Positions 2 to 55,900 of a DNA stretch of 64,000 nt are shown here, one piece after another. Positions within the stretch are counted from its first letter, which is position 1. The number at the start of each line of letters is the position of its first letter. Position numbers and translations under genes: made by a program. Origin of the DNA: an uncultured Chlamydiae bacterium (GTDB lineage Bacteria; Chlamydiota; Chlamydiia; Chlamydiales; JAJFMB01); the NCBI GenBank assembly GCA_963696295.1, contig CAVOJR010000001.1, forward strand, positions 2,656,001 through 2,720,000, given 5' to 3'. The notes beneath the pieces were generated by a model. That model had not been told where the DNA came from. It saw only the letters and a list, made by a program, of their open reading frames with translations, and ran no database searches.

Positions 2-1903
2 ATAATCCCTCCCTCTGAAAGTGACCCCTACAATGCCGCTCTCTTGATCCGCAATGCCCGCAAGAATGATGCAGTGCTGCAATACCGCGATCTTGTGCTT
101 AAGGGTGAGCTGCCCGGCAGGATAAAGGCTGCCAAAGTGGATCCGGTTCCAGCCTATGTCCTCGACGAGCTTGGAATCGATTCCGACATGAAGAATCTGG
201 CAGAAGCCCTCTACAACCAGACGCGCACCGACGCTTTTACCCCTGAAGTGAACACCCTTCGCGGCTGGAAAGACGGCAAGCCCTTCCTCATCGAAGTGCC
301 GGAAGATATATACAAAGTTTTTTCAACGCTGGCCCCGCAGGACCGATCCGGACTTGCGCAGATATTCAGCACCACCAACAGGCTCTTTTCCCGCGGCATA
401 TCGATGGCACCGCGCAAGTTTGTCTCCATCATGAGCCGGGACGCCCTCTCTTCACTGGTCTACTCAAAGACAGGCAGCAACCCTCTCAGTGTTGTGGAGG
501 CCCTCTCTGACATTCACAAAGCAAGCCCCGTCTATAAGGAGTTTCTTGCTATGGGCGGCGACGTGTATGCCTCCCGCCTGGCTGAGCGCATCGACCGGGC
601 CAAGAAGATCGAGGACCTGATCACCCCCGGCAAAGAGGGCATACTGGTGCCTTTCGAGAAGATGGGCGACTACCTTCGCAAATATAGCGAGAGTCTCGGC
701 GATATATCCCTGGCAGTTCCGCTTGGCGAGTACAAAAGGGCGCTTGCCAAGTATGGCAGTACACCGGAAGGGCGCATCATGGCAGCGATGGAGGCCCGTC
801 GCGTCACCTATGACCCTACCCGAAAAGGGGGCAGCAAGATAGTCCGGGACATTGGAAATTTCGTGCCGTTTTGGAATGTCAGCCTTCAAGACATGTCCAT
901 GCTCGGGCGCAACCTGGACACGCCATCAGCCTGGGCGAAGGGGATCGTCGCTATTTCCACCCCTACTCTTCTCCTGAAAATGGCCAACGAAAACAACCCA
1001 GACTATCAGGATCTGAATGCCGTGGACAAAGCCGCTTTCTGGCACCTCTACTTCGGCGACAAGCATTTGCGCGTCCCGATCCCCTGGCTGCTTGGAACGA
1101 CCTTTAAAGTGGCAGCTGAGGGTTTCTATGAGACTGTACAGGATATGAGGAACAAGGGCGATAAGAGGGCAGCAGAGGCATGGAAAGGGCTGTACAGCAA
1201 CTTTACTGAGAACCTGTCTGGCTCACTCCCCCCTATCGCTAAAGCATACATAGAAACAGCAACAGGCAAATCCCCGATGTCGCCATTATCAGCGATTTTG
1301 GGCACGGAAAGCCGCGCTCCCGACGTCATTCCCCGCCGCCTGGAAAACCTTCCTGCAAAGTACCAGGTCACCGCTAAGACAAGCCAGCTGGCAAGGCAGT
1401 TTGGCGATCTGTGGGGTGTTTCCCCTGTCAAACTGGAGCGGATGATCAAGAACTTCGGCGGCAATGTGGCAACGGATCTGCTTGCCCTGACCGATGAGAT
1501 CGCCTACTTCAGCGGCATGGCCGAGGATGAAAGACCGGAGCAAAGAGAGGCCAATTATCTCCTGCTCGGCAACTTTGTGTCGAACAGCCCCACCTCAAGA
1601 ACGAAGTACGCTAATGAGTTCTACAGCTTATTGAATGAAGCCCGAGAGAGCAAGGCAGCGGAAAGGTTGATCAAAAGCAAAGGCATCATAGATCCTGAAT
1701 TGAATGAAATCCAATACCGTGGCACTCCTCTTTTCAAATACAACAGCGAAATTTCGAAGCTATTTAAGGCGATGCGCGCAGCAGAGGAAAACAAAGCCCT
1801 GTCAGGTGCAGAGAAAAAAGAGAAACTGGATGGCTATCAGGTTAAGATCAATGCCCTCTACAAAAAGGCCGTTGAGCAAGCTCGCAAAGCTGCAAAGGAT
1901 TAA
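2..1903 (+). CDS. Large polyvalent protein, C-terminal part with LPD38-like domain (phage/prophage); 5' end runs off the window
   Basis: Frame is open from base 2. Motifs FVPFWNVSLQ, KAAFWHL..LRVPIPWLLG and VSPVKLERMIKNFGG match the LPD38 pattern. GC-richer than the downstream island and followed by an att-like tRNA fragment. Confidence 0.7.
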   Translation: MIPPSESDPYNAALLIRNARKNDAVLQYRDLVLKGELPGRIKAAKVDPVPAYVLDELGIDSDMKNLAEALYNQTRTDAFTPEVNTLRGWKDGKPFLIEVPEDIYKVFSTLAPQDRSGLAQIFSTTNRLFSRGISMAPRKFVSIMSRDALSSLVYSKTGSNPLSVVEALSDIHKASPVYKEFLAMGGDVYASRLAERIDRAKKIEDLITPGKEGILVPFEKMGDYLRKYSESLGDISLAVPLGEYKRALAKYGSTPEGRIMAAMEARRVTYDPTRKGGSKIVRDIGNFVPFWNVSLQDMSMLGRNLDTPSAWAKGIVAISTPTLLLKMANENNPDYQDLNAVDKAAFWHLYFGDKHLRVPIPWLLGTTFKVAAEGFYETVQDMRNKGDKRAAEAWKGLYSNFTENLSGSLPPIAKAYIETATGKSPMSPLSAILGTESRAPDVIPRRLENLPAKYQVTAKTSQLARQFGDLWGVSPVKLERMIKNFGGNVATDLLALTDEIAYFSGMAEDERPEQREANYLLLGNFVSNSPTSRTKYANEFYSLLNEARESKAAERLIKSKGIIDPELNEIQYRGTPLFKYNSEISKLFKAMRAAEENKALSGAEKKEKLDGYQVKINALYKKAVEQARKAAKD

Positions 1904-2220
1904 AACTCCCAGCCACAGGATCGTTTTACAAATCCAAAAGAGATCATTGAGGCAGCAGCATAACTCCATCTTCCCAACAATGAATCAAGCATTTCGCCTA
2001 CAGACATATTTTGGCCGATAAAATGGCCGATATCTGGCTGCCCTGGCCAATAATACCGCACGATCTCGAGGAAGTCACAGAGCTTTTCCCCAAAAATTCC
2101 CCACTCAAGTGGGACAGTTTGCGACAAATGAAAAAAAACGACAAATGATAAATTTATCTAAACAATTAATCGTATTGTTGTTATGATTCGCGTAATGTTG
2201 TGCTAAATTGGGTTTTGGAA

Positions 2221-2273
2221 GACTGTAAATCCCTCGACTTCGGTCTTCGCTGGTTCGAGTCCAGCCGCCCCCA
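2221..2273 (+). mobile_element. att site: 3' half of tRNA-Tyr(GTA), not a complete tRNA
   Basis: GACTGTAAATCC anticodon loop, long variable arm, T-arm GCTGG-TTCGAGT-CCAGC and acceptor 3' strand CGCCCCCA. No D-arm or GGGGGCG 5' strand upstream. Confidence 0.85.
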
Positions 2274-2460
2274 ACTCTCTTAGAATCAATAACTTACAAG
2301 AAGTTGTTAACCAGAAGAAAATTGTGGTAAGCGCTTTTTGTCCAACCACTCTCCAACTTTTTCAAGTTGTCAAGACAGGCCTTAAATGGGAAAAGTCAGG
2401 GTTATTAATGATGAAGTCGATCTATATGCAGTTTTTCTTTAAGTTATCAAGGGCATAAAA

Positions 2461-2916
2461 ATGGATGTAGCTTCGGGCTTGGCAGCAATTCAAGGAGCAA
2501 TGACTTGCCTTAAGGCCATTTCTGCTGCATTAAAGACGGTCAAAGAAATTGATCAAAAACTTGCTCTTCTCGGCGTGCGTGAGCAGCTCGTAGAGCTCCA
2601 AGAGCGCTTATTAGATGCAAAAGACTATACCAGTGACTTAATAAGCCAAAATCAAGAATTGCGTCAACAACTTACCATTAAAGAAGAGATCCAACACCAG
2701 GAAGACGGTAACATTTTGTGGCGCGTTGTAGATGGACAAAATAAGGGGCCATATTGTTCTACTTGCTACGGTGCTGAAAGTAAGCTAATTTCCTTAAGTG
2801 GAAATAAGCCGGGTGCATGGCATTGCCCAAAGTGTCAAAATCATTTTCACACTCGACAGTGGAGCGAAGAACAAACGCGAATGTATGAGCAGCTCACTCG
2901 ACGGCATTATCGTTAG
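2461..2916 (+). CDS. Hypothetical protein: hydrophobic N-terminus, coiled coil, C-terminal Zn ribbon
   Basis: 151 aa; CSTC...CPKC motif. Confidence 0.7.
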   Translation: MDVASGLAAIQGAMTCLKAISAALKTVKEIDQKLALLGVREQLVELQERLLDAKDYTSDLISQNQELRQQLTIKEEIQHQEDGNILWRVVDGQNKGPYCSTCYGAESKLISLSGNKPGAWHCPKCQNHFHTRQWSEEQTRMYEQLTRRHYR

Positions 2917-2970
2917 TCTATGGTAAAAGTTGTTTACTTAAGAGATTGCTGTCTCAGATACGTATCTTCA

Positions 2971-4107
2971 TTAGCGCTTTAGTCGGTTAATAGGTATTGC
3001 ATTCTGAATTTTTTTGAATTCTTCAAGAATTCTTTTTTCTTCTTCAGCTGAAGGTCGTGCTCCTGCTTTGGGCGGTTTTGGTCTCATCCTTTTTTTCCAT
3101 ATTTTAGAAGTATGACATCCTTGTAAGACCGGTGGGTATTGGCCGTACTTTAAGTGAAATTCTTCTAATTGTTCATTTGAAAGAGTGTTAAAAAAATTTT
3201 CGAGGAGGTAGGAGTCATTTTTCAATTGAGACAAAGATATGAAACTTTGATTTTTTCTTAAGAAGAATGGAGCGATTTTTCTTAGCTCTTTATCGCCTGA
3301 GGTAAAAACCATAGAAAAGGGAAGGTAATAAACATATTGGATATCAAGATGAGTTTTTGATTTTTTTCCTTTTTTTATTAATTCAAAACTTATCCCAAGA
3401 ATATAGAAGAGATTGACCTTGTAGAAATAAATAGAGTATGGGGCAAATATATCAAGTGGCGGACATCCTTTAGCTTTCCAACGAAGCAGCGTAGGTTGTA
3501 TATGTTCTGGCCTTAGGATGAAATTTGCTGCATTTAACAAAAGTTGTTGTGGGCCAATTTTAGCGAAGAGATCGTCAATCCAATAAATTAACTCGTCTAG
3601 CGATTTAAATTTTGGAAAATCGATGAGATCTCCTGCAACGTCTTTGCAAAGCCAATCTAAATCAACCTCGCTATCGATTTTTCGATGCTCTCTACCTGTT
3701 TCAATATCATCTTCTTTAAAGATATTATCACCCCAGTTTCTTAGCAAAGTGACTTCCGGAGGTTCGTCTAAAACCCACCCCTTACTCCCATCTTCAGTTA
3801 CACAATATGTGCCACCTTCAAAAGGTAAACTCCCATCCATCGGAACGAACTCTCCCATCAAATTGTTGTAAGCCAGTTTTTCTGCAGAAGGAATTAGATG
3901 TACTGGACCAAAGGTTGATTTAGCAGCAAGAAGGCTAACTTTTTTCTTAAGATCCTCAAGATCTTCCTCCTTTTTTCCAAGCATAGAAGATAACTCCCTA
4001 AGCAAAATAGGCGTTATCACATGTGAGTAATATCGACGTAAAGAGTTGTATTCTTTAAAACTAAGACCTTGAATAGTCGATTTGTCCATCTGTGTGAATG
4101 GCCCCAT
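2971..4107 (-). CDS. Hypothetical protein, possible PIN-like nuclease fold
   Basis: ~378 aa from ATG at 4107. Acidic motifs in PIN order: MDKS, LLRE, HLDIQY, FTSGD. Confidence 0.5.
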   Translation of the reverse strand: MGPFTQMDKSTIQGLSFKEYNSLRRYYSHVITPILLRELSSMLGKKEEDLEDLKKKVSLLAAKSTFGPVHLIPSAEKLAYNNLMGEFVPMDGSLPFEGGTYCVTEDGSKGWVLDEPPEVTLLRNWGDNIFKEDDIETGREHRKIDSEVDLDWLCKDVAGDLIDFPKFKSLDELIYWIDDLFAKIGPQQLLLNAANFILRPEHIQPTLLRWKAKGCPPLDIFAPYSIYFYKVNLFYILGISFELIKKGKKSKTHLDIQYVYYLPFSMVFTSGDKELRKIAPFFLRKNQSFISLSQLKNDSYLLENFFNTLSNEQLEEFHLKYGQYPPVLQGCHTSKIWKKRMRPKPPKAGARPSAEEEKRILEEFKKIQNAIPINRLKR

Positions 4108-4179
4108 GAAATTTAACTCCAATGATTTTTCTTGTTTTGCAACCGCTTATAATTTATAACATATGATATAATAAATATC

Positions 4180-4497
4180 TTGATGAAAGGCAAGCTGATG
4201 TTCCAATTTACAGACATGTCAAATTCAGAAGAGCAAATTGCTCAACATGTGCTCGAAATTCGACTTGAAATGGGTCTTACACAAGAGCAGTTCGCAGCAA
4301 AACTTGGTGTTTCTTTTCCTACCGTAAATCGCTGGGAAAACAAAAAAACAAAACCTTCTCCTCTTGCTATTCAGAAGCTACAAAAGTTTCTATCAGCTCT
4401 GAAGAAAAAGAAGAATGCTTCCCAGGAGAGTATGGAAGAAATAGAGGCGAGTGATGCGCCACAACACACAAAAATTGTAAATAAGGCTACAGTATGA
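4180..4497 (+). CDS. XRE-family helix-turn-helix regulator
   Basis: LTQEQFAAKLGVSFPTVNRWENKKTKP. Stop overlaps the next start (ATGA). True start may be 4198 or 4216. Confidence 0.9.
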   Translation: MMKGKLMFQFTDMSNSEEQIAQHVLEIRLEMGLTQEQFAAKLGVSFPTVNRWENKKTKPSPLAIQKLQKFLSALKKKKNASQESMEEIEASDAPQHTKIVNKATV

Positions 4498-5885
4498 CCG
4501 CGCTACCTATTAATATTGATGAGCTACTGAGAGGACAGATTGTTGAATGGGAACGTCTTGAGTTCAAAAAAGGATGGAATCCCGAAGAAATCATTCACAC
4601 CATTTGCGCTTTTGCAAATGACATCAACAATTGGGGTGGGGGTTATCTAATTATAGGAATAGAGGAGGATAAAGGCCAGCCGATTTTTCCGCCAATAGGC
4701 ATATCAGCCAATAAAATAGACGAAATTCAAAAAGAGCTTGTCAACTTAAGTTATAGGCTGCGTCCAAATTATCATCCAATAGTTGCGCCTGTCGTTTTTC
4801 AAGAAAAAATGATTCTGTTGATCTGGTGTCCTGGCGGTCAAACGCGACCTTATCAAGCTCCTGATACTTTAGGTAAGAATGCACCTTATTCTTATTTCAT
4901 AAGGCGCAATTCTACAACTGTAAAGGCTCAGACAAAAGATGTTCAACGACTTCATGAAATGGCAAATCAAGTGCCTTTTGACGATCGAATTTGCCATCAA
5001 GCTAGCCTGAAAGATCTTCAGGTAGGTCTCATTAAAGACTTTTTGAGAGACGTGAAGAGCGACCTCATATCAGAAGTTGATAAGATTGCTCTTGAGCAGC
5101 TCTGTCGTCAAATGCAGATTGTGCAGGGACCAGAGGAATATCTTAAACCATTAAATATTGGTCTAATGATGTTCAATAATAATCCAGAGCAATTTTTTCC
5201 CTATGCTCGGATTGAAATCGTTGATTTCCATGACGAAGTAGGCGATAGCTTTTCTGAAAAGATTTTCAAAGGACCCATCCATATTCAGCTTAGAGAGGCA
5301 TTGAGATATCTTCAGTCGATGTTTATCAAGGAGGAGATTCGTAAAAGACCTGATCGTGCCGAAGCTGATCGATTTTATAACTATCCTTACGTTGCCTTAG
5401 AAGAGGCTTTAGCTAATGCTGTCTATCATAAAGACTATGCCCAAAGAGAACCGATTGAAATCAGCATTAGGCCAGATCGTATTGAAATTTTATCATTTCC
5501 AGGTCCATTACCTCCCTTGAAAATTGAAGATTTAAATAAAGGATCTGCCCACGTTCGGACTTATAGGAATCGGCGAATTGGAGACTTTCTTAAAGAGCTT
5601 CATCTGACTGAAGGGCGTTGCACTGGAGTGCCCAAAATTCATAAAGCTATGGAGGCAAATGGGTCGCCTCCGGCAATTTTTGAAACAGATGAAGAGTCTC
5701 ATTACTTTCTTACGGTTTTGCCTATTCATCCCGAAGCAGGAAGAAGAGCAACAGCTGCAAGTCAAAACACACCGGTAGAGGAGCAAACACACCCGTATAC
5801 CGGTGTGTTTGGTACCGAAACACACCCGTATACCGGTGTGTTTCCAATAGAAACCTTGCCACAAGAGCTTACAAATGTTAATTAA
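4494..5885 (+). CDS. Schlafen/AlbA_2 domain + RecG-C/HATPase_c_4 domain protein, lacking its C-terminal wHTH
   Basis: EWERLEFKKGW..ICAFAND..GGGYLIIGIEE; YPYVALEEALANAVYHKDY; YRNRRIGDFLKELHLTEGRCTGVPKI. Confidence 0.85.
   Translation: MTALPINIDELLRGQIVEWERLEFKKGWNPEEIIHTICAFANDINNWGGGYLIIGIEEDKGQPIFPPIGISANKIDEIQKELVNLSYRLRPNYHPIVAPVVFQEKMILLIWCPGGQTRPYQAPDTLGKNAPYSYFIRRNSTTVKAQTKDVQRLHEMANQVPFDDRICHQASLKDLQVGLIKDFLRDVKSDLISEVDKIALEQLCRQMQIVQGPEEYLKPLNIGLMMFNNNPEQFFPYARIEIVDFHDEVGDSFSEKIFKGPIHIQLREALRYLQSMFIKEEIRKRPDRAEADRFYNYPYVALEEALANAVYHKDYAQREPIEISIRPDRIEILSFPGPLPPLKIEDLNKGSAHVRTYRNRRIGDFLKELHLTEGRCTGVPKIHKAMEANGSPPAIFETDEESHYFLTVLPIHPEAGRRATAASQNTPVEEQTHPYTGVFGTETHPYTGVFPIETLPQELTNVN
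5785..5843. repeat. Two copies of a 26-bp near-perfect palindrome (AAACACACCCGTATACCGGTGTGTTT), 33-bp period
   Basis: Copies at 5785-5810 and 5818-5843; partial third copy near 5765-5776. Confidence 0.9.
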
Positions 5886-6136
5886 TAAATTTAATAAACG
5901 CTCTAGTATAAAAGACTTACGTTTATTAATTCAAAAACTCTGTGCATGGCAACCACTAACAGCTCAGCAATTAGTAGAATCTTCTGAAAAGAAAAGATAA
6001 AAAACACTTCGTTAGAAGCCATCTTACGCCAATGATTAAAGAAGGGACGCTAAAATACTTATTTCCCGAAGATGAGGACTCTCCTAATCAAGCATATACC
6101 TGTGAAAAAGGAGATGGCGATGAAGGCTCAAAATAA
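5875..6136 (+). pseudogene. Frameshifted C-terminal winged-helix remnant of the AlbA/HATPase gene
   Basis: Two shifted frames read LIQKLCAWQPLTAQQLVE and LLKRKDKKHFVRSHLTPMIKEGTLKYLFPEDEDSPNQAY, the usual wHTH tail of this family. Confidence 0.7.
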
Positions 6137-6556
6137 ACTAATTTTGCACATTCTTCAAAAGGATCTGACAGGTAGATGGCTTCCTGTTTGCGTCAAAGGA
6201 AGCTATTGCGGAAAGACGAGCTATTCGCGAAATGATTATTGGGTGTAAAGATCTATCGCGTCATTTTGAGAAATAAGCAGAGAAAAGGAATGGTCTCTAT
6301 AAACAAGTTATGAAATTGGCAAAGGCTCGTAATCATGATTATTTCTTAATATAAGTCGATTTCATCATGTCTTTCACGCTTTTTTGACTAATCTTCCTTG
6401 AAAGAGTAATCCTGATTGAAAAATAATCCTGCATTCGAAATGCATATTGTTCCAAAAAAATATAAAAAATTTGGTGAACTTAAATTAAGTTTTATATCTT
6501 GTTGTTAATTTTCTTTTGATCTATACTTCCATTTTTATTAAAATGGTGAATTTAAA

Positions 6557-7609
6557 ATGATAAAGTTGTTGTTTATTTTTTTGACAACTATTTCTTTTGT
6601 TTCTTCTGTAGAATTGCCAAAGTATAGAATGATCGACCTAGGATTATTTGGAATAGATGAGAGTTGTGCTATTTCAATCAACGAAAAGGGACAGATTTTA
6701 GGAAGATGTGAAGAAGGAGGTTGTTCTTTCGTATTTATATGGGATAAATTTAATGGTCTTAAATTAATTGATTTACCTGAAGGATGTGAATATTGGGGAT
6801 TCAAGTTTAATAACAAAGGACAAATAGCAGGAATAGTTCGTTCAGATTCTATTTTTAGGGTTTTTCTTTGGGATCCTAATTTAGGTTTATGGGAGGTTGA
6901 AACTTCAAAGAATAACATATATTTAGCTGCACTTAATGATCAAGGACAAATTTTATTCAATGTAGATGAGCAAATGATTTTTTTTGACCATGGGAAGAAA
7001 ACCAACTTAACAACTCTATTTAAAAAACAAGTACCTGGGCAGTGGAATTCATGTTTTCCTGTTGCTCTTAACAATTATGGTCATGTAGCTTTCAATACCA
7101 GTATATCCAATTCGAACCAACACCATCTAGGATGTAGATCATTTTTATGGAAGGATGACTCGTTCAAAACGGTTGTTTCAGAAAATGAATGGAAAACTTT
7201 AGTAAACATAAAGTGTGTAGATAATGATGTAAACGTCGTGTGTATGGATGACGAAGGGAACATGATTTTAACTCTTTATTCGTATCTAGGAGGTGGTTCA
7301 TTTGCACATTTGCAATACTTTATTAGTCCATCTAGAAATGTTAATTTTTCTTGTCAAGGGTGTTACTGTATAAGAAACGGTCTTCCTATTGCAATAGATT
7401 GTTTGCATGGAAAATTAAAAAAAGACAATCAAGATAAATTATACATTTCAAAAGGTCTTCAAATCAAAAAATTGTTGAAGGATGAGTATCCATATTACAA
7501 TGTCTCTTCTGCTGATGTATCAGATCAAAATTCTAAGGGATATGTGGTAGGACAGATTGACACGATGTTTCCAGGAAGACATGCTTTTTTAGCAATTCCT
7601 GAAGAATAA
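6557..7609 (+). CDS. Secreted HAF-repeat-like (beta-propeller) protein
   Basis: Signal peptide; repeats of the type AISINEKGQILG, ALNDQGQI, ALNNYGHV; C-terminal RHAFL. Confidence 0.7.
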   Translation: MIKLLFIFLTTISFVSSVELPKYRMIDLGLFGIDESCAISINEKGQILGRCEEGGCSFVFIWDKFNGLKLIDLPEGCEYWGFKFNNKGQIAGIVRSDSIFRVFLWDPNLGLWEVETSKNNIYLAALNDQGQILFNVDEQMIFFDHGKKTNLTTLFKKQVPGQWNSCFPVALNNYGHVAFNTSISNSNQHHLGCRSFLWKDDSFKTVVSENEWKTLVNIKCVDNDVNVVCMDDEGNMILTLYSYLGGGSFAHLQYFISPSRNVNFSCQGCYCIRNGLPIAIDCLHGKLKKDNQDKLYISKGLQIKKLLKDEYPYYNVSSADVSDQNSKGYVVGQIDTMFPGRHAFLAIPEE

Positions 7610-7646
7610 AGGGGAATAGTGCTTTAGTCAGCAATGCTATTTATTA

Positions 7647-8186
7647 TTGAAAAAATTTAATATATATAAAATAATGCCATCTCCATCAATCAAAACCATA
7701 AGAGATCTAATATTTTATCAATATTCCAAAATAATAGCTGATTCTGTTGGATTGTCTAAAACAGGATCTACCAAGAGCGAATATTTTAGCTTTGTTATGG
7801 ATCGTGTAAATAAGCTACGTAGTGGTGAAATTAATATGAGCACTATATCTCGGGAAATAAAAATGCAAATCCTCTCAGAACAAAAGTGCTGTGAATATTG
7901 TGGTAAATTAGATGGGTTATCTTGGGATCATCTCATACCCCGAAGTAAAGAAGGTCCTGACGATGTTGAGAATTTGGTTTTATGTTGTCGGAGCTGCAAT
8001 TCCTCTAAAGGTAATAGAGGGCTTTACGCTTGGTTTGGGATTAAAAATAAAGACAATTTCCCAAGGATTGTCGCAGGTAAGTATCTAAAGCTTCTTTATG
8101 ATCTCCATAATGAACGAGGAACCCTAGATGCTCGTGATCTAAATGGGGATGGAAAACTTGATGTTTTAGATCTGGAAATTTACTAA
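7647..8186 (+). CDS. HNH endonuclease with C-terminal EF-hand/dockerin-like loop
   Basis: CEYCG..WDHLIPRSKEG..ENLVLCCRSCNSSKGN; tail DLNGDGKLDVLDL. Confidence 0.85.
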   Translation: MKKFNIYKIMPSPSIKTIRDLIFYQYSKIIADSVGLSKTGSTKSEYFSFVMDRVNKLRSGEINMSTISREIKMQILSEQKCCEYCGKLDGLSWDHLIPRSKEGPDDVENLVLCCRSCNSSKGNRGLYAWFGIKNKDNFPRIVAGKYLKLLYDLHNERGTLDARDLNGDGKLDVLDLEIY

Positions 8187-8971: not shown

Positions 8972-9263
8972 AATTTTCAAAATCGCATTTACGCAAATTT
9001 TACGCACTAGACTTCATAAAGTGATTTAGAGTTAAAAGACGTAAAAGGCGGCGTGTTGGCACCAGGATTAGCAACAAAAAAAGGGTCCGGTAATTGTGAA
9101 ATTGCAGCTGCTAGACTAGTCAAATTACCATCAGATAATTTTGTTGCTGCCTGATTTGGAGGAACATGATGCCGACATGCAGTAGCAGGAGTAAGATAGT
9201 ATATTTTTGAAATGATATTTGTGATGCCGTTTCTCAGGAAGTTTATTTTTTCTTGCTCTTTTT

Positions 9264-11723
9264 CTACCCCGCAATCGCCTGCCTAAAATCATCCATAGTC
9301 ACATGACCAAGCGAATGGCTGCCGGCCTCTTCAAGGCTGATATTCGCTTGATCCAAACGCTCCAATGCGTAGGAGGAAGCTTCTTTGACTATCCCTTCAA
9401 TATCTGCGCCGGAGTAACCTTCAGTTAAGTTGGCTAATTGCTCGAGATTGAAGTCCGGCAGCACATTCGCTTCTTTCAACCCTTTGGTATGAATGGCGAA
9501 AATCTCCTTTCTCCCTTGCAAGCCGGGAAGGGCCAGTTCCAGATGCAGCTCAATCCGTCCCGGACGCAAGAGGGCCTTGTCGATTATATCGGGCCTGTTC
9601 GTCATGATGATCACAAAAATATTATCGAGCTGTTGCAATCCATCGAGTTTGCCCAAAAACTGGTTCACCCAGGAATTGTACCAGGGATGTTCGCTCCCCT
9701 CTTGACGGGTGCCCAAGATCGATTCCGCCTCGTCGATAACCACGACATACATCCCTTCTTTCCCTTTTTTCTTTGCTTCCTCAGCGGATTGGAAGAGAGC
9801 GCGGATCTTCTCTTCAGTAGCCCCAATAAATTTATTGGTCAATTCGGAGGCGTTAAGCAACTGAAACCGCTCTCCTTCCCCGCAGCCAAAAACTTTGCCG
9901 ATATTCCGCGCCAGGGTCGTCTTCCCGGTTCACGGAGGACCGTACAGCATCATCCCCTTGATCGGTTTAAGCCCTCTTTTCTCAAACTCCTTTTTTGAGG
10001 GGCCCCCGCGAGAGGATCACCTTGTGCAAAAGGGTTTTCAATTGCTCTGATATACCCCCGACGACCTCTTCCAGCTTAGTGATATCCATTTGTTCCGCGG
10101 CTTGCGCCAACAAAAGCTGATCGTCCATATCAAACTCTATCTTTGTTTCAGCGGTAATTTCCCCGATAATTCCATACTTTTGTCCAGCAGGCTTTGTCTC
10201 AAAGTCCGTCTTTTTGGCTTCCAGAGTAAGGTTGATTTTCTTGAAGTTAGCATCCAGGCAAGTGATGGAAATCCGCTGATTGCTGAAGATTTTACCTTGC
10301 AAAGCTTTCCTGGCCTCTTTCTCAAGAGCCTTCTTTGAAAAAGTGAATGGCTCCTTGAAAAATCATGCTGACTCGACTTTCAAGGTCAGCTTGAGGACTT
10401 TATACATTGACGAGTCATCGACAATATAAACTTTCTCTTTTTTGCTGCTGACACTAAGATCTGTTGCCTCGAGAATTTGGCCATAGGAATTGGAATTTCC
10501 ATCGCAATCGAGATTTTGGACGCGCAGAAAGAATACGCTCGTGGAGAGCGTCACGGAAATGCCTTGCTTACGCACCAGTTTTTTCTGCAGAAGATACTCC
10601 TTCAGTTCTTTGACCGGGAGCCAGGCTATTTTGTCACCTTTTTTCTCCTCCGGCATCCCTTCAATCTCCATTTCCATGCTTTTGGCTGGGGCTTCTCCTT
10701 TGCATAAGAGGAGATGCATCTGCAAGTTCGGGGCTATTTCTACACTATAATTGGCCCCCCCTTTAAGTTGGTACGATTTGTGATACGCCTTCTTCTCACC
10801 GTTTTTGTTTACATCTAGGACTTTTTGAACTTTGATATCAAGCTCCTTTCCGTGCCATTTTGCGGCAAATACTTCCCTTTTGCAAAAGGGGCCTGCTCTC
10901 AGAGCATTAGAGATTAATTCCCGAATTTCAACCGAATCAATCACTAAAGAGGGCACATAGGGTTTCTGGAAAATTTTGTCGATCTGTTTGGAATTGACCA
11001 AAAGTTTTATCTTCTGATTTTCGTTTATTTCGTAGGTGCGATCATAAATCGCTAAATTCTTTTCCGTTTGGAAATCCAGATCCGTTTCTTCAGTCAAACG
11101 GCAAAAAAGGCCTGAATTAGCCGGCTCCCAATTTGTGAGCTTTGCAAGGAACTTCCATTTCTTGTAAGGGAATACAAGGGTATGCCCCTTTGAGTAAATC
11201 TGCTCATTATTCTTCAGATAAACGCCTGTTTTATTTCATGCAGAGGAAGGGATACTTGCCCCTCTTCGTTATTTTCGAGCAGGGTCAGGCTGAAATGAGC
11301 CTTTGTCGCCAAGGGAAAATCTGCAAAAGCTTTCATCACAGGATTTGCCAAAATAGAACGATTCTGATTAAACATGAAAATGCCTTTTGCGACCTCGTCT
11401 ACCTGGCGCAAAGAGAGCAGAAGGGTGCCCGGGGGGATCGAATCGACCCCTTGAATGGGATAGATGTGATCGGCCAGCCGGATCCATTTGGCTTGACAAT
11501 TAGCGAGGTCTTGAGAGGGCATTCCCACGCAATTTAAATCCCCCCAATCCGATTCAGCCGAGATGGCGATGCGGGCGATTTTTGACACCCCATCTTCCGC
11601 TATTTCCTGTTTGATAGGGTTGACATTGTCATCAAACGAACGTTTCTCACTGACATTCATGCTGTAAGCTCCGAATAAAAAAGATGAAACAATACTCTGC
11701 AAAGCTATTTTTTGCAATGACAA
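9264..11723 (-). pseudogene. Disrupted NSF/Sec18-like (vesicle-fusing) AAA+ ATPase, ~820 codons
   Basis: Four co-oriented fragments can be joined. KGMMLYGPP*TGKTTLARNIGK (TGA at 9930-9932), Walker B VVVIDEAE, VNQFLGKLDGLQQLDN, TNRPDIIDKALLRPGR. Second in-frame TGA at 10363-10365; frameshifts at ~9995 and ~11218. Confidence 0.8.
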
Positions 11724-11740
11724 GCCTTTTATTCAACCAG

Positions 11741-11769
11741 TTGCAAAAAAGGGGGTTTTTGATTACAAT
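11741..11769 (+). promoter_or_regulatory. Sigma70/sigma66-type promoter
   Basis: TTGCAA-17 bp-TACAAT just upstream of the ATG at 11778. Confidence 0.5.
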
Positions 11770-11777
11770 TGTAAACT

Positions 11778-12545
11778 ATGAATCAAAATATTCTAAGCAT
11801 CCTTTGCGATCCAGGCAGCCATCGATCTTTAACTGAACAGAATGGAAGCCTAATCGGAGAAGATCAAGTTTATCCCATTGTTGGAGGCATTCCCATCTTT
11901 TTAAAAGAAGGCGATGTTACCGGCGATAACGAAAAGTATCAAAAGTTTTATGATAAAGTGGGTCGCTTTACGGGTTCTGTATTTTGGTTTATCTGCCGCC
12001 TTTTTCGATGGGATATGGTTTCCCAAAGAAAAAATTTGTTGTCTGATTTGCAGGTGAAACCCGGTGACAGAGTGCTGGAAACATCGATTGGCGCTGGAGC
12101 CAATATTCCCGCGCTCGATCCCCTCGCATGCTATGTTGGAGTCGATATTTCTATGGGCATGCTCAGGGCTTGCCAAAAATATCACCTCCTTCAGCCTTAT
12201 AATTTACAGCTCATTCAGGCTAATGCCGAATTTTTACCGTTTAAAGATGATTCTTTCGATGTGGTTTTTCATTTTGGGGGAATTAATTTTTTTAATGATA
12301 AAAGCCGGGCAATAAGAGAAATGATCCGCGTCGCCAAGCCGGGTGCAATGATTCTGATTGGCGATGAGACTCAAAAGCATGTGGATTCCTGGTATAAAAA
12401 AGTTCCATTCATAAAGCGGTATTTTAAAGATGTAGAACCTGTTGCCATACCGATAGATCTGATTCCCTCAAACATGCATAATCTAAAAGTTGATTATAAA
12501 TGGGATGATTCGATGTATGTCATCACCTTCAATAAACCAGCTTAG
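11778..12545 (+). CDS. Class I SAM-dependent methyltransferase with Trm112-like N-terminus
   Basis: LCDP...YPIVGGIP; RVLETSIGAG, GVDIS, ANAEFLPFKDDSFDVV, RVAKPG. Confidence 0.85.
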   Translation: MNQNILSILCDPGSHRSLTEQNGSLIGEDQVYPIVGGIPIFLKEGDVTGDNEKYQKFYDKVGRFTGSVFWFICRLFRWDMVSQRKNLLSDLQVKPGDRVLETSIGAGANIPALDPLACYVGVDISMGMLRACQKYHLLQPYNLQLIQANAEFLPFKDDSFDVVFHFGGINFFNDKSRAIREMIRVAKPGAMILIGDETQKHVDSWYKKVPFIKRYFKDVEPVAIPIDLIPSNMHNLKVDYKWDDSMYVITFNKPA

Positions 12546-40302: not shown

Positions 40303-40443
40303 CCTGAACCAAATTTTCCAGTGAAAAAGTGTGTTTTCTTGAAGAATCCATCAGAACTTATGGTGTATTAATTAAAACTTTAATCAATGTTAATATTCAA
40401 GTTGTATAATTATTTTTTAAATAAACGAGCAGGAGTAAGTATT

Positions 40444-42135
40444 ATGGTAAAATCAATACACAGCAACAGCTTTCCTCAACCAACACAAGCTGGCAGCATA
40501 GAAACTAAGAGCATTTCCTTTAAAGATGCCCAGAAAATGTTTGCACCTAAACCTCAAGAAACCCACGCTATAAAGAAGCTCATTCCTCCTGCAAAGAAGC
40601 TAGAGATTCCGGCCGTTATGACTGCAGCTCCGGTTGTAAAAGAATCAAATACCGTAAAAGCAGCCGAGCTAGCCCCTCGATCCTATGGGGATTTACCGCC
40701 GCCGCCCGACCTAAGTACTCTTCCAAACTATCCTATTCCAACAGAGACAGCCGAACCCCTTCTGCCTCCACCTCCAGTATTTGATGAAACTCAACACAAG
40801 GAAGTTAAAATTTCAGAAGTAAAATTACAAACACCTGAGGAGCGGGCAAAAACTGCAACAGCTAGTCAAATGGCACAAATCCCTGCAACGGTTCAGCAAT
40901 GGTTTACGAAAGCAGTCAACGGTGTAACGAGTGCAGTAGGCTTGCTCCATCGCGGTCCATCTGTAGAAACTGCAGAGACTACTACAAAAGAACAGCAATG
41001 GAAAGAAAAGGCCATCAAAAGCCTGGATGACTGGAAGCCTAAAGGAAACGCCGAAGAGGCAAAAAAGCGTATTATTCAAGCCATAGAGAAAGAGATGAGC
41101 TATAGATCGAGTTGGTTAAATTTAATAAATACTAATGATTTAGATTTAAGCAATCTAGATCTCGATACTCTTCCGTCGGTCATCTGGGAACTCTCAAGTT
41201 TAACCCGCCTCAATTTGGCCAATAATTCCCTTACCATCCTCCCGCCTACAATAGGAAATCTTAAAAGCTTAAAAAGCGCGGAATTGGACAATAACAAACT
41301 CAAATCGATTCCCCAGGAACTAGGCAATATCAAGGGCTTGGAAGGAGTCAACATTGCTTACAACCCGCTCGAATCCCGTCCACCTAAATTAGGGCAGCTC
41401 AAGTATTTTTATTTTGGCTCAACAGAAGTTTACACAACCGAAAAAGCTATTTACATGACATTTTTTGTGATGGGTTTATCTTCAGAGGAGGCTCAGCGCA
41501 TGGCTCAACAGGATTACAAGTATGTAGATGAATTCGCTGAATCTTCAGAACCGGAAGATCAGTATAAACAGTGGGCGGATAAGGCCATAAAAAGCCTGGA
41601 TGACTGGAAATCGGAAGGTGATATAGATAAAGCCAAAGAAATCATTATTCGTGGTATTCGCAGGGAAAGTTCTTGTAGAAGAGATAATCAAAGTTCAGGG
41701 TGTACTTTTATAGATTTAACAAATTGCGGTTTAAATAACCTCCCTCCGGTACTATGGGAATTGACAAGGTTAGAAGATCTAAACCTGTCTGGCAACAAAC
41801 TCACATCCCTATCTCCGCAAATAGGCCAACTGACAAAGTTAACGAGTCTCAACTTATCCTCTAACCAACTAAAAGAAATCTTGCCTGTCATAAACAATAT
41901 GAAAAGCTTAACACATATTGATCTCTCTAAGAACCCGATCCTATCCTACCCAAATCAAATAGGGGAGCTTCTTTATTATTCTGACGATAATCAAGAAGTG
42001 AAATATCTTAAAAAATCATTTGTAGAATTGCTGAATTCGTCACTTTCTCATCAAATCAAAGAGGGGAAGATAAATAAAGAACAATTTGAGGAAGATCGTC
42101 TAAAAGATCTGGCCCAGGATTTTCGACGAGGATGA
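40444..42135 (+). CDS. Leucine-rich-repeat protein with Pro-rich N-terminus (candidate effector)
   Basis: LxxLxLxxNxLxxLP repeats in two modules, each preceded by QWxxKAIKSLDDWK; LPPPP tracts; GGAG RBS before ATG 40444. Confidence 0.85.
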   Translation: MVKSIHSNSFPQPTQAGSIETKSISFKDAQKMFAPKPQETHAIKKLIPPAKKLEIPAVMTAAPVVKESNTVKAAELAPRSYGDLPPPPDLSTLPNYPIPTETAEPLLPPPPVFDETQHKEVKISEVKLQTPEERAKTATASQMAQIPATVQQWFTKAVNGVTSAVGLLHRGPSVETAETTTKEQQWKEKAIKSLDDWKPKGNAEEAKKRIIQAIEKEMSYRSSWLNLINTNDLDLSNLDLDTLPSVIWELSSLTRLNLANNSLTILPPTIGNLKSLKSAELDNNKLKSIPQELGNIKGLEGVNIAYNPLESRPPKLGQLKYFYFGSTEVYTTEKAIYMTFFVMGLSSEEAQRMAQQDYKYVDEFAESSEPEDQYKQWADKAIKSLDDWKSEGDIDKAKEIIIRGIRRESSCRRDNQSSGCTFIDLTNCGLNNLPPVLWELTRLEDLNLSGNKLTSLSPQIGQLTKLTSLNLSSNQLKEILPVINNMKSLTHIDLSKNPILSYPNQIGELLYYSDDNQEVKYLKKSFVELLNSSLSHQIKEGKINKEQFEEDRLKDLAQDFRRG

Positions 42136-47398: not shown

Positions 47399-50300
47399 TT
47401 ACATCGAATAATTCGTTAAATTGCCAAACTGCTTCGGTAATTGGAGTTGGGGGGCAGGATCGGGGATTTTTAGGATGTTTTGGGACGAGCTTTCTTGATT
47501 TACTGTGACTTTCACCTTCGACTCTTTGGGAATGGGTTGCTGGAATAGGCGCTCATAGATGAGGTCGATGGTTCTGGTTTTGAAGGCGGTGCCATCTTGG
47601 ATGGTCGAGGTGGCTTTCAACGAATTCCATAAGGCGCGGAACTCCTCTGGCTTGGCCTGGATCCACTTTTCTAAAAGGGGGATGTTTTCGACAATGCCAT
47701 TGGTCAGATTCACTGAGGCCAGTACTTCTTGAAACCAAGGATCTGAGTTTATAACCAATTCCGAACTGTTTGGGTATAGTTCTAAAGAACCATTTTGATA
47801 GAGATTGCCATCGGGGGTGAAGAGGGCAGCGCGACAGCTAGGGTCTTTTCTCAACTGCTCCAGATAGTGATGGGCGTCGTCATTGGAAACCACGGCGGCG
47901 CATCTCTCGCCCTTTCTCTCATGGATCAAAATGGTGTAAGCAGGCTTTCTGATTGTTTGACCCGAAAAGAGGTTCAGGGCGTTTTTGCTGATGTATAAAT
48001 TTTTCGGAAAGAAGGGATTGTCGGAAAGAGGGGAATAATTAGAGGAGCTCTTAATGTCCAGATTTTTTAGGCAATCTTCGTTTTTGGCGTAATCGAGGAT
48101 CTCTTTGACTTGTCCGCTCTGAGTTTTTTGCTGCAGGAGGGATTGTTGTTTGACCTCTTCTACTGTGACGCGATAACCGACTTGGCGCGCGGTGGCGGTA
48201 AAATCGTAGAGAGGGCTTTCGGTTTTAGCCACCAGCTTGCTCGCCCGCTCAATGATTTGATTGGCCAGTTTCCATAAATCCTCTTGGCTTTCATCTAGGT
48301 ATTTATTGGTAAAAGCTGTCAGGAAAAGTTTCGTGTCGATCTCCTCAATGGGTATGCCGTAGGCCAGCACAGGGTCTCTTGGCATGGGAAATTCGAAGCA
48401 TTTTTTATATTTTTTATAATTAGCGGGGGTTTTCGCGATTTGCTCTTTGGCAAAGTGCCTCGCGAGAAACTGGATATCTTGCTGCGCTGTAGCCAGGATC
48501 GTGCTTTTGAGCTTCTTCGCTTCGTTTTCGGCAATCCATCCGAACAAACCTTTCACGTCTTCCGTTCCGCTCGATGCTTTAATGAGGGTGCGGATCTTTT
48601 CGGGTAATACCCATAAAGTGGTCTGCCCTTGCGGGTCGATCGGATTTTTTAAGAAGCTTCTCATGCGCATAACGGCTTGGGCGGCGGCGGAGAGGGTGGT
48701 GTTTTCCCCAATCGAGACAATCATCTTGGCGTGATCTGAGAGGGTGAGGTCGGTCCCGGTGGTTTCATCGGCGCCGTAAATTTTGAAGATCCGCTTGCCG
48801 GTGAGGCCCAATGTGGCCAATTCCCTTTTTAAATTGGTGGAGGGAAGCTGAGTCACTTTCTTATCTTTGTCCATGTAGTAGAGCCGCTTTTCTTTCCTCT
48901 CATCGAGATCGAAGTAGATCGCTCCGGCGTAGTCGAGGTCTTTGGCAAATTCGCAAAACGCCTCTGCCCAGGATTTTGGCTGGTGCCCTTTGCTCCAATA
49001 GCCGAGATCGATGATCCCTTCAATGGTTTTAAAGTTTTCCGGGTTTGCCTTATAGAGATCCTCAAAGAGTTTCTTTGGGGTAGATGGCTCAAAATAGTGG
49101 TGCTGCCCGTTATGCGGCAGGCAGCAGCGCTGAACCACATCGGCCAGAAATTCGAGATCGGGCCAATAGGAGTAGCTGTCGTCGAGACCAAAGGGGTAGA
49201 GTTCCTTTTCTCCCAGGGTGGCTGAAAATTGCACGGTGGCAAACGAGCCTGAAACCAAATCGGCACCTGTCGAGGTCATCTTTTCCGGGAAATGCAATAC
49301 TTGAGGGAGAGCGAGGTAGCGCAGATATCTCGTAATCACTTCCGGTTCCTTACCGATCCGCTCGATCATCATTTGCAAAAATTTAGGGTTGTAGAGATCG
49401 GATTCGGTGATCTCCTTTAATTCTATGGGGTCATTTTTCTGCCAGGCTCTAAATCTTAAGGCCAAATCGGTGTCTTCTTTCGCTTCATTCTGCAATTGGA
49501 GGAGGAGTTCTCTCATGGAGCTTTGATGCTCCACGCCTCTTTGCCAGGCGCCTTGACAGGTCAGTGTGGCGGCGATATCGGCGCTTTCAAACTTGGCAGA
49601 GGTCGGCGTTTTCTGATCGCGCGGCGCTTCCACCAGATCGGTTTCGAGGATAGAGGGGCCGTAATCCATCTCACCTACTTTGCTCAAATTGCTGGGCAAG
49701 ATTTTCAGGTAGAGCCCGCGCACGAAAGCAATCTCGGGCTGCAAGCTGGCCGGGAGACTTTTCGGATAGGAGAGTTTTTGATCTTTGACATAAGCCAAGG
49801 CAGCCGGATCGCTCACCTCCAGATCTTTCAGCAACTGCTCGGCAATAGCATCCAGGCACCTTTTTTTCTCCGCTTCCAATACCTGGGCTTGACCATTTTC
49901 CCTTAAGCGTAAAGAGGGTTGATCGACCATCAACTGATACGCGCGGATGAGGATCTCCCGCTGCTTCTCTTCAATCGGTTCGGGCGTGCCTTCAGCTTTG
50001 TTCGCCTGTAATAAACTATCGACGTTGCGGTGCGATTCATCGATCAGGAAGAGGCAATCCTTTTTTAATGTCTTTAAGAATTGATCCAGCTCCCAGAAGA
50101 GCAGTATCTGGTTTTCTTTTAGCGCTCTTTGCCAGGCGAGGTGAACCGCATGGTAGGTCTCGGGCTTAAAGATCAAGCAGGCTTTATTTTGCTTTAGAGA
50201 TTGATTGAGGTCGCGCATCTTTTGCACGTCAAACTGGTACTGCAGATCGATGTCTATATGAGCCGCGTTTTTTTGAAACACCTGGACCAGCACCTCTCTT

Positions 50301-52901: not shown

Positions 52902-55900
52902 TCAATAGTATATTCTTTGGAATATAAGCCGGGGTAAGCTGACTGTCGACCAGCTTTGGGATGTTGCCATATTCAGTTTTTGTAAAATGGAGTTTCCAAT
53001 CAACTCCTTATTTTCAGACAAATAGGCCTGGAAATGGGCCTGCTGGGCTATTTCACGTATAACATACTCATTATCAGAGATATTCGTTTCATAGAATTTA
53101 GCGCAGGTGTTGTAGATGAGATAGTTGATAAATTGCTCTTTTTTCCATGGGGAGGGGTAGAGTTCCAAAGCCGCCCGGCATTCAAATAGCTCCCCTAGAT
53201 TATCAGACCCATTATTAATCTTAAGATCGAGCCTCTCTTTTAGAGAGTCGACAAAGGACTGATTGAAGGCATGTCCGGCCTGATGTGCCTGCGTTTCACA
53301 GTAGAGGGCTAATTTGATCCACTTTATCGCTTCCATGTGGGATCTAGGACTTAAACTGTTCAGCTGCCTGAGCACCATCTCTTCGATATTTTTTTGGATA
53401 GCCGGCTCTGCTCGCAACGCCTTTAACAGGGCGTGATCGCGGAAAAATCCCGTCTTTACTTCATCAAAAACTTGGATTGCTTCTAAGGGGTGCTGATTGA
53501 CCCAGTTAATCAGGTAAGGGATCCTCATTTCGGGATAGGCATCGAACTGGGCAAAGCTGTTTGCTAGCGATTCGGCAGTGCCGTGATAGATCTCATTTTC
53601 TTTTTTTTCTTGAACGGTATCGTTTTTGAAATAATTTCCCAAAGGCTTGATTTTCTGCTTTAAAGGCGCTGCCACCTTTCGTAAGCCCGATAATTCGATA
53701 CTCTCGTTTATATAGGTCCCAAGAACCCCTTTTTCCTCCCAAGTTCTATGTTGTGTCCTTATAGCATTAATATCGAAGTGGTTGACGGAATCATCTTTTT
53801 GTTTGGGGAGCATGATTTGGTAATGGCGGCTCATCAATTTCGCCAGATTCCTAAATGACTTTGGCAGATGGTCTTCCTCGTTGCAGTTTACGTAAGCTTT
53901 CCAATCTGTAAATCCATATTCCGTCGAGAGCAAACGATAAAGCATCTCCTGTTTGTCTTTGCCGGTTTTTGTGTTGTATTTCGTGATTTTATCTTTGAAT
54001 TGGTAAAGGTAATCGTAAAGATCTTTCACGCAAGGATTTTGAACAGCTGCGAATCTCGCCTCAATGCAGGCGTCAAAATCTTGAATAAAGTCGTTGCTAC
54101 TTAAATTGAGGAACCCGAACAGATCATTTTTTGCGTTAACTGACCGGAAATAGTCGGCAATTTTTTCAAATCGCACAGCCGTATCGCCATAGCGCAGGTC
54201 CAGTTTATGCTGAATGCCATCGAGTAGGGGAACGATATGAAAACCCTTTGGCAGGGTACTGCACAAATGATCGCAAATGGCTAAAGCGTGCAAATTGAAA
54301 AGCACCGTTTCCGGGTCGTTTGAGGGGAGTTTCATATTTGCTTTGGTTAATACGTTGATACATTTCTCTTTTTCCTCATCGGTCAAATTCCACCCCTCAG
54401 TAATAGGCAGTGTGCGCATTAGGGCGAAAATGCCTTTCGTTTTTTCTTCTTCGGTCTCTTTCTGGTATTGCCCGAAAATTTCATCAGCAGATAATCTGTC
54501 CAGCAAGGCGATTTTCTCTTTTAACTCAAGTTTACTATAATCGGGGGTTTTGATGGAGTTTATCGGATTATAATGAGTATCTTTTGTTTCCTTGCTAGCC
54601 CAAGATGTCACTTTGAGCCGGTCAAGCGGCTCTCCCATGTTGGGTAAATCCTGCCCAAGCGGTGGTGTTTTCACTTCAATTCTCTTTAACAACTGGTGAG
54701 TAAAGTCGAGCTCATCTTGGTTGATCATCTTATTTTCGAAGGCTTTTGTAAAGGAATGGGCCGCGGCTTGCCGCAATCTGGCTACGAGCTTTGCCGGCAG
54801 GACATTTGCCATTTTTTCCAAATGCTTAGATGCTTCGATTTTCCCGCTGAGAATCACGCGCTTATACTGTGTTTTATCATCTAGGTGGTCTAGCATGACC
54901 AGGCGGGCCAGCTGCTCTGAGCAGGTGCCGCTCCGTTGCGGGGTAGCAGCCTGAATTTTGCCTTTTTGATTGGGTTTTGAAACGGCAAAAAACATCCCTT
55001 CTAAATCTGTACTTGTCCACTCTCCATTTTTCGGTTCCAAATTCGTAAAGCCGATCAATTTTTCCGCTAAAGCCAGGTCTAATTCCCGATTTTCATGTGA
55101 AAATAGCCGTCTGTCAAGAGTGTGGCCAAGCGATCTATAGCTTGGGCACGGTTTTCCCTCGATTGAAGCCGTCGGGAAAATTTCAGCTCCGTCCCCTTTA
55201 TTTAAAAAATAGTAGGCGAGGCTGCTGCTTTTTTTCTCTATAACTACCCCAAAGACGTGGCCAGGGGATCCGGCTGTTCCTTTGACGCTTAAAGTGAGGA
55301 CGACTCGTTTTCTCTGCTCTAACCGGTCATAGACATAATTGATAAATTCTTCCCCTTTTCCTCCCCTTAGGAGGGATTCCGTTGCGGCCAAGTCCTCAAA
55401 ATCAGCCAGTATTTCCTTTTTTTTCTCTTCTTCGACAAAGGTTTGTAAATTTTTATCCCCTTCAATCACCTGTTTCCAATAAGAGACGGAGTCTTTAGCC
55501 ATCCCGCCTTCATAAGAGGAGTTGCCAATTTGCGTATCGCCTAGGACAAGGGCGATTCTCCTGGCATCGACACCAGTAGCTGAGCATTCCGCCGCGGGCA
55601 ATTGGGTCTTCTCTGGCACCAATGTATTGACGCGCTCCTCTTTTAGCATTTGGATATGGAACCCCTTTTCGGGCCTGGGGATGGAGGGCGCGATCTTTTC
55701 GGCCTTTTGCTGCTTGGGGGGTTTTTCACCTTCCCGGGCAATTTCTTGCACTTGGGCATTTGCTCCCAGAAAAGTGAGTCCGCCGATGACCGGCAGAGCC
55801 GTTCCTACCAGACATTGGCCAAGCCGATTGAAATCCTCGAAGAGCATAGAGGTCAGATTTATTCGCCAATTTCTTAAATCCCGGTCCTCAGACGTATAAC

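Follow-up and report, generated by a model that had tools for sequence, protein, structure and literature searches.

Organization of the Locus

The window analyzed here is a 64,000 bp stretch of contig CAVOJR010000001.1 (positions 2,656,001 to 2,720,000; assembly GCA_963696295.1) from an uncultured Chlamydiae bacterium, and all coordinates below are positions in this window. A broken gene on its minus strand, spanning 9264..11723, is very probably a recently inactivated Type 2 NSF-like AAA+ ATPase gene of an environmental chlamydia. NSF/Sec18 is the ATPase that disassembles SNARE complexes in eukaryotes. The NuoD of the bacterium is 71-84% identical to NuoD of Parachlamydiaceae, Parachlamydiales, and Chlamydiae metagenome-assembled genomes (MAGs), and the bacterium is therefore an environmental chlamydia.

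Six-frame translation of 9200-11800 gives four open frames on the minus strand, at 11723-11214, 11097-10363, 10302-9982, and 9860-9264. In order, they encode pieces of 169, 244, 106, and 198 amino acids (aa). The pieces join into one protein if two frame changes are made (frames 2 to 1 to 2) and two stops are passed. TBLASTN with the intact proteins P0008 (772 aa), P0005 (805 aa), P0003 (862 aa), and P0007 (845 aa) gives a colinear match across the locus that begins near residue 20 of the homolog and runs to its end, and the intact colinear homologs are 718-862 aa long. The N-terminal pieces are all covered in the TBLASTN searches with P0008, P0005, and P0003, and the family alignment includes Tupanvirus proteins. 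The intact product is thus a protein of about 800 residues that consists of a double-psi barrel, four tandem Nc units, a linker, and an NSF-D1-like AAA domain with its lid.

The coordinates 9264..11723 mark the maximal open-frame span. The first TTG of the open frame, at position 11723, had been taken as the start in a sequence-only reading of this DNA; by homology, the ATG at 11660-11658 is the likelier start. The stop lies at 9266-9264. The C-terminus is natural, as the closest relatives end within a few residues of the same position (TBLASTN). The reading ends in RQAIAG. The frame stops directly after the lid, an ending shared by P0006 and P0008, the closest intact relatives. The C-terminal fragment past the Walker A stop (9264-9860) has been called as a gene in public data (P0121, 162 aa). 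Annotation pipelines therefore list the relic as an AAA protein.

Domain Architecture

Pfam matches to an AAA domain and its lid occur in the last piece only. The AAA core (PF00004) is at 9534..9953 on the minus strand (residues 16-155 of the last piece, E-value 9.5e-30) and the AAA+ lid (PF17862, AAA_lid_3) is at 9333..9455 on the same strand (residues 182-222, E-value 6e-14). Neither the translation nor Pfam gives a second AAA domain that could be a D2 ring, and the stop at 9264-9266 comes directly past the lid. The translation retains an aromatic pore loop (KFIG), a Walker B motif (IDEAES), the sensor asparagine, and the RPGR arginines. We counted a column as conserved if it is kept in at least 90% of 40 other AAA domains of the family; 45 of 47 such columns are retained, and the corresponding fraction in intact members is 0.91-1.0. 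One of the two lost columns holds the Walker A stop and the other has changed from D to E (D in 36/40 other rows). When single stretches are scored against the PDB, the best matches of the AAA module are the D1 domains of Sec18 (191.6 bits) and NSF (186 bits), compared to 126.7 bits for VAT D1 and 118.3 bits for VAT D2. In per-domain phmmer searches, scores are 161-357 bits for family members and 98-146 bits for Cdc48 domains.

The N-terminal region was placed by structure. Pfam gave no match at E ≤ 0.1 in the three N-terminal pieces of the pseudogene. We modeled the first piece with AlphaFold2 (169 aa, 35-row alignment, mean predicted local distance difference test [pLDDT] score 77.9). Residues 45-131, encoded at 11331..11591 on the minus strand, are modeled with a pLDDT >90 as a double-psi beta barrel of the NSF-N/Sec18-N/p97-N type. 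Foldseek returned 48 PDB matches to the barrel at E ≤ 1e-3; among the matches listed, 27 of 27 are NSF/Sec18 N-domains. VIA-align Z-scores are tied between Sec18-N (10.7), NSF (10.6), the mycobacterial AAA protein MSMEG_0858 (10.6), and p97-N (10.2). The modeled barrel is of the NSF/Cdc48 N-domain type, with NSF preferred by the sequence-aware ranking only.

The middle region consists of four tandem, mutually homologous Nc (CDC48_2-like) beta-clam units, all on the minus strand. Unit 1 (approximately 10993..11321) is interrupted by the first of the four lesions described below, and it is followed by unit 2 (approximately 10717..10992), unit 3 (10417..10716), and unit 4 (10102..10416), which carries the second lesion. 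Unit 1 is supported by secondary structure and by its profile alignments with units 3 and 4, and unit 2 by its alignments with units 4 and 3. These alignments were made by cutting the family alignment into four blocks and comparing the blocks with hhalign. Probabilities are 96.2% for units 1 and 3, 95.8% for units 3 and 4 (84 columns), 94.7% for units 1 and 4, 94.0% for units 2 and 4, 81.2% for units 2 and 3, and 20.5% for units 1 and 2. Units 3 and 4 were delimited on an AlphaFold2 model of the middle region (409 aa with an X at the stop, mean pLDDT 84.4), where they occupy residues 168-267 and 268-372. In VIA-align, model residues 168-265 of unit 3 superpose on p97-N 91-187 (Z 9.1, root mean square deviation [rmsd] 2.1, 76 aligned) and residues 269-372 of unit 4 on NSF-N 85-197 (Z 10.4, rmsd 2.4, 91 aligned). 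For units 1 and 2, no separate structural match was obtained, the search lists being filled by units 3 and 4. The Pfam domain CDC48_2 is detected in 9/33 aligned family members at E ≤ 0.1 (best E-value 3.7e-6). The 244 aa middle piece, used as a single-sequence query against 40 relatives, found no match; a family profile is needed.

The sequence-only reading had proposed an NSF N-domain-like start, a long region of repeated N-subdomains, and a single AAA module with NSF D1-like wording and no D2. All three features reappear in the models, the unit comparison (five of the six pairs at 81-96%), and the Pfam and per-domain scores. The unusual multi-N, single-AAA architecture that it described is accordingly a barrel, four units, and one AAA ring.

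Family Placement

The sequence-only reading had suggested looking for intact orthologs; the closest intact relatives are metagenome proteins. The AAA part of the pseudogene is 59-67% identical to that of the intact single-AAA proteins P0003, P0005, P0006, P0007, and P0008, and 48-50% identical to that of Tupanvirus P0086 and P0091 and other members. A search for related loci with P0008 gave one unrelated Syntrophaceae AAA gene only.

We built a careful tree of 63 AAA domains with IQ-TREE (LG+C20+F+G4), from which 32 rows that were near-duplicates or on long branches had been dropped. The pseudogene falls in a clade of six rows with the five intact proteins named above, at a support of 100/100. 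A branch supported at 100/99 splits 34 rows from the other 29. The 34-row side holds the family of the pseudogene, including Tupanvirus P0086 and chlamydial loci, together with five "NSF-like" metagenome and Cafeteria proteins. The 29-row side holds D1 and D2 of archaeal and eukaryotic Cdc48, chlamydial FtsH, PAN/Rpt, and TPR-AAA proteins, and includes 20 Cdc48 domains. A quick tree of 95 rows agrees with this split. Both trees are without canonical NSF.

Proteins found as candidates for canonical NSF did not serve as references. D1 is the only part of Sec18/NSF matched by P0123, P0125, and the relatives P0148 and P0149 (173-249 bits), with no match to the N-domain or D2. We rejected these four proteins as canonical references; they are NSF-like, not NSF. 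P0123 and P0125 are labeled "vesicle-fusing ATPase" at their source, P0125 is a Cafeteria roenbergensis record, and P0148 and P0149 are close to P0125. Three of the candidates (P0125, P0148, and P0149) are sister to the Type 2 clade, and all four, P0123 included, are non-canonical in length. They could represent viral insertions or a third type of NSF-like protein. Matches in the protein searches for canonical NSF were mostly two-ring Cdc48 proteins.

The locus could alternatively belong to a prokaryotic Cdc48/VAT-type lineage, or to an independent lineage of classic-clade AAA proteins, in which case the NSF likeness would be superficial and "NSF-like" a misnomer. Grouping with prokaryotic Cdc48/VAT-like ATPases had been named in the sequence-only reading as the outcome that would overturn an NSF affinity. 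VAT and p97 do lead the whole-protein PDB scores, and there the scores of two domains are summed (126.7 + 118.3 bits for VAT). The barrel is structurally tied with p97-N, VAT, and MSMEG_0858, the best match of unit 3 is p97-N, and most family members carry an HbYX-like tail like that on archaeal Cdc48 (discussed below). The absence of canonical NSF from the trees also leaves room for this placement. Against it, the 186-192 bits for Sec18/NSF D1 exceed the scores of both VAT domains (127 and 118 bits) and of every Cdc48 domain scored (≤146 bits), and the 100/99 branch, in trees without canonical NSF, parts the AAA module from both D1 and D2 of Cdc48. The Foldseek matches of the barrel, among those listed, are NSF/Sec18 only, and the family was picked up by NSF-specific hidden Markov models (HMMs) in PMC9546365. 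We therefore consider a Cdc48/VAT-type or independent origin improbable and retain the NSF-like assignment.

The Four Lesions

The four lesions reported in the sequence-only reading, including the change of the Walker A motif from GPPGTGKT to GPP*TGKT, were all located in the translation as two frameshifts and two TGA codons. All are given on the minus strand. Lesion 1 is a frameshift from frame 2 to frame 1 at 11214..11235; frame 2 then meets a TGA at 11216-11214 and the homology to P0008 continues in the other frame. Lesion 2 (10363..10365) is an in-frame TGA in a loop of unit 4, found by six-frame translation. Lesion 3 (9991..9996) is a frameshift from frame 1 to frame 2 within a run of six A in the linker between the N-terminal region and D1, located by six-frame translation and TBLASTN. 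Lesion 4 (9930..9932), also seen in six-frame translation, is a TGA at the Walker A glycine, a column that is G in 40/40 other family rows. The broken gene cannot make the full protein, as it is cut into four pieces, and the Walker A stop removes nucleotide binding from anything translated downstream.

The lesions could be sequencing or assembly errors in a gene that is intact in the organism. Lesion 1 changes the frame by a single base and lesion 3 lies within a run of six A; both are error types of long-read assemblies, and the catalytic motifs are otherwise all intact. In two of the lesions a base substitution has produced a TGA, and assembly errors are not typically of this kind. Nor would one normally expect four errors within 2.4 kb of a window whose 29 long open reading frames (ORFs) are open. 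Independent sequence bears on this question as well. None of the public sequencing runs contains the whole locus, no RNA run is listed for it, and each of two soil-metagenome runs from one study contains only 7-9% of its sampled words. Contigs from these two runs carry lesions 3 and 4 at 100% identity (9745-10022). The sequence of lesion 3 is identical in contig record 2 of run X1 (9872-10022) and in record 4 of run X2 (9789-9997), the latter reaching one base past the A run. The sequence of lesion 4 is identical in the same two records, at a depth of about 2 in each. Since the two soil runs contain less than a tenth of the words of the locus, it is unlikely that the assembly was built from them. 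Identical contigs cover the locus at 9745-10022 and 10054-10231 only, besides two short pieces that are unlike it. Lesions 3 and 4 thus recur with identical sequence in contigs from two other runs, and lesions 1 and 2 lie outside the covered stretches. On this evidence we judge it very unlikely that the gene is intact.

A broken gene could still be useful to the cell, either through separate N- and C-terminal polypeptides or, if the TGA codons were read through and the frameshifting were programmed, through a full-length product. The open pieces are long, each of the two in-frame stops is a TGA, and the C-terminal fragment is listed in public data as a gene call. Such expression would require four separate recoding events, however, and the AAA fragment past the Walker A stop has no P-loop. 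The stop codons of the 29 long ORFs in the window are TAA (17), TGA (8), and TAG (4). TGA thus ends 8/29 and is an ordinary stop here. We considered TGA recoding in view of the two in-frame stops, which are both TGA and one of which is at a glycine position, and we reject it on account of this usage and of the two frameshifts that would remain. None of the 32 relatives that bear the family has a stop in its full-length gene, and the only other interruption is a fragment of 372 aa in genome G292. We find continued use of the locus hardly plausible.

Comparison with Type 2 NSF-like Proteins and Other AAA+ ATPases

Two types of NSF in giant viruses have been found with NSF-specific HMMs (PMC9546365; Traffic 2022). 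Canonical Type 1 NSF genes occur in one Legionella species and some giant viruses. The Type 2 NSF-like proteins are D1-only, probably monophyletic, and found in Mimiviridae, with chlamydial homologs. The Mimivirus NSF-like protein was found in viral factories, and the authors leave open whether Type 2 proteins bind or disassemble SNARE complexes. In the literature searched, we found no work on NSF-like proteins and Chlamydiae other than PMC9546365.

The pseudogene resembles the Type 2 proteins in its D1-only AAA module, in an N-terminal region that is conserved between viral and chlamydial members, and in an AAA domain that groups in a single clade with proteins of Tupanvirus (P0086, P0091) and of chlamydiae. 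It differs from them in being broken in four places, and its subclade (with P0003, P0005, P0006, and P0008) has no C-terminal aromatic tail like that of most members. The Type 2 family is already described, and the pseudogene is a degraded member of it, not a new family. The N-terminal region, which is unassigned in the passages of PMC9546365 consulted here, is now resolved into an NSF/Cdc48-type barrel and four Nc units.

We searched 1.84 billion cluster representatives with a profile of the N-terminal region only. It matched 309 proteins at E ≤ 1e-3, 166 at E ≤ 1e-10, and 120 at E ≤ 1e-30. The best 150 of the 309 are nearly all 740-1500 aa long, and the shorter minority look like fragments. 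A single Walker A motif is present in 98/118 complete family representatives. A second AAA domain is present in L019 (G039:C13, a 1214 aa frame) and in P0004 (a Waddliaceae MAG, 1504 aa). In the quick tree, the second AAA domains of such chlamydial members sit on long branches within the Type 2 D1 clade, which suggests an internal duplication of D1 in L019 and P0004 and not an NSF-type D2.

Canonical NSF/Sec18, in which alpha-SNAP/SNARE complexes are bound by basic residues of the N-domain, has an N-D1-D2 arrangement with D2 as an oligomerization ring and a single N-domain of about 200 residues (a barrel and one beta-clam), neither of which is found in the pseudogene. The best per-domain match of its AAA module is nonetheless NSF/Sec18 D1, and the barrel and unit 4 superpose on NSF-N with Z-scores of 10.4-10.7. 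The pseudogene has no D2 ring, has four Nc units vs. one, and is only 10-17% identical to NSF-N. The Cdc48/p97/VAT proteins share the N-domain fold family (double-psi barrel and beta-clam), are likewise classic-clade AAA proteins, and provide the p97-N match of unit 3. They have two AAA rings vs. one in the pseudogene, and the AAA domains are split at 100/99. Pex1/Pex6 are similar in having duplicated N-domains before their AAA rings; Foldseek ranks them first for the middle region, and PEX1-N superposes with a Z-score of 8.6. The match is weak (template modeling [TM] score 0.18), and in Pex1/Pex6 the whole N-domain is repeated and followed by two AAA rings, whereas the pseudogene repeats the Nc half only.

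The sequence-only reading had called the protein eukaryote-type NSF, a label that does not survive. We give next to no credence to a canonical NSF taken directly from the host cell: the D1 wording and the N-domain fold are NSF-like, and Type 1 genes do exist in Legionella and giant viruses, but D2 is absent, the N-terminal region has about 550 residues with four Nc-like units vs. about 200 residues in NSF, the nearest relatives are chlamydial and giant-virus Type 2 proteins with the same odd architecture, and none of the best 150 of the 309 matches to the N-region profile, all with a long N-region, is built like canonical NSF.

Several points weigh against a recently inactivated Type 2 gene. 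Homopolymers are typical sites of sequencing error, and lesion 3 is in one. The independent contigs cover lesions 3 and 4 only, not lesions 1 and 2, and do so at a depth of only about 2. The Z-scores of the barrel do not set NSF-N apart from p97-N or MSMEG_0858. With trees that lack canonical NSF, the term "NSF-like" draws on scores, fold ranking, and the HMM classification of PMC9546365. The match to Type 2 was made by architecture and member groups. Secretion, hexamer formation, and the substrate of family members are all inferred.

Distribution and Loss

We searched 400 scored genomes of the order with the family profile. FtsH-level matches are found almost everywhere, and FtsH still passed at E ≤ 1e-45; a family-level threshold of E < 1e-60 was therefore set by eye. 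At this threshold, 32 of the 399 other genomes have a match, 27 of them reaching the N-region, and all full-length family genes in the 32 are without stops. The two other genomes of the bacterium's own family have no family-level match. The family is thus patchy within the order (about 32/399 other sampled genomes and 0/2 in the bacterium's own family). One genome, G292, has an AAA-only family fragment of 372 aa with one internal TAA (G292:C1:29796-30656) in addition to an intact copy. This fragment may be a second decaying copy.

The genome that carries the pseudogene yielded only the pseudogene pieces and an FtsH match, and no second copy, with about 2.6% of the genome unassembled. Since there is no second copy, the function appears to be lost in this lineage. 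The loss looks recent, as the sequence-only reading had supposed: lesions are few, and the retention of 45/47 conserved AAA columns is within the range of intact members, so decay has barely begun. The locus thus captures one environmental chlamydia losing its sole copy of a family that is shared by intracellular bacteria and giant viruses of protists.

Putative Function and the C-terminal Tail

The sequence-only reading had proposed that the protein may have been a host-derived modulator of membrane fusion. The Type 2 family is thought to act on host membrane traffic. By analogy with other classic-clade AAA+ proteins, intact members would form a single hexameric ring, the enlarged N-terminal array would bind a partner or adaptor, and ATP hydrolysis would drive the substrate through the pore. 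Since intracellular chlamydiae and giant viruses are the only carriers of the family, the target is probably a protein complex of the host cell, for which SNARE complexes would be the obvious candidate.

Most family members end in a hydrophobic residue, Tyr, and one further residue. This ending is found in 37/48 members of the first set and in 71/118 complete representatives, with 14 more having Phe. Examples are MYI, MYL, and LYT, and they occur family-wide (P0007, P0060-P0120, L014-L031, P0265-P0400). The tail is absent from the pseudogene and its subclade. A C-terminal hydrophobic-Tyr-X (HbYX) is the motif by which the proteasomal ATPases (PAN/Rpt and archaeal Cdc48) dock on the proteasome. 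The archaeal Cdc48 matches in our search lists also carry this end. Most Type 2 members thus resemble the HbYX proteasomal ATPases in their ending, and the pseudogene and its closest relatives differ from them in having none.

It is conceivable, if unlikely, that the family is a pathogen-encoded unfoldase that docks on the host 20S proteasome and not a SNARE disassemblase. The suggestion comes from the conserved tail together with a single D1-type ring with aromatic pore loops and an enlarged, adaptor-binding Nc array. In addition, chlamydiae and giant viruses are not known to encode a 20S proteasome of their own. In the literature searched, we found no work that joins HbYX with Mimivirus, and none of the papers listed for giant viruses, Nucleocytoviricota, or Chlamydia mentions HbYX. 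If docking were true, the subclade would have lost the tail first and the lineage would then have lost the gene, and a host-manipulation function would be in the course of being abandoned. The tail is a lead and not a result, and it offers a testable alternative to the SNARE hypothesis.

Neighboring Genes

Elsewhere in the window, a 582 aa leucine-rich-repeat (LRR) protein (40387-42135) is weakly similar to the LRR type III effector models XopAC, XopAE, and XopL, all far below cut-offs. Two very large minus-strand ORFs at 47399-52858 and 52902-56444 (1819 and 1180 aa) have no NCBIfam match, and a search of the genome collection by peptide patterns gave no relative of the 1180 aa protein. On the low-coordinate side, past the stop of the pseudogene, the stretch 44-8186 is low in G+C (0.33-0.39). 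It encodes an LPD38-domain protein (44-1903), a Schlafen AlbA_2/HATPase_c_4 protein (4494-5885), and an HNH endonuclease (7647-8186), as well as ORFs without family matches, and looks like an accessory or mobile region.

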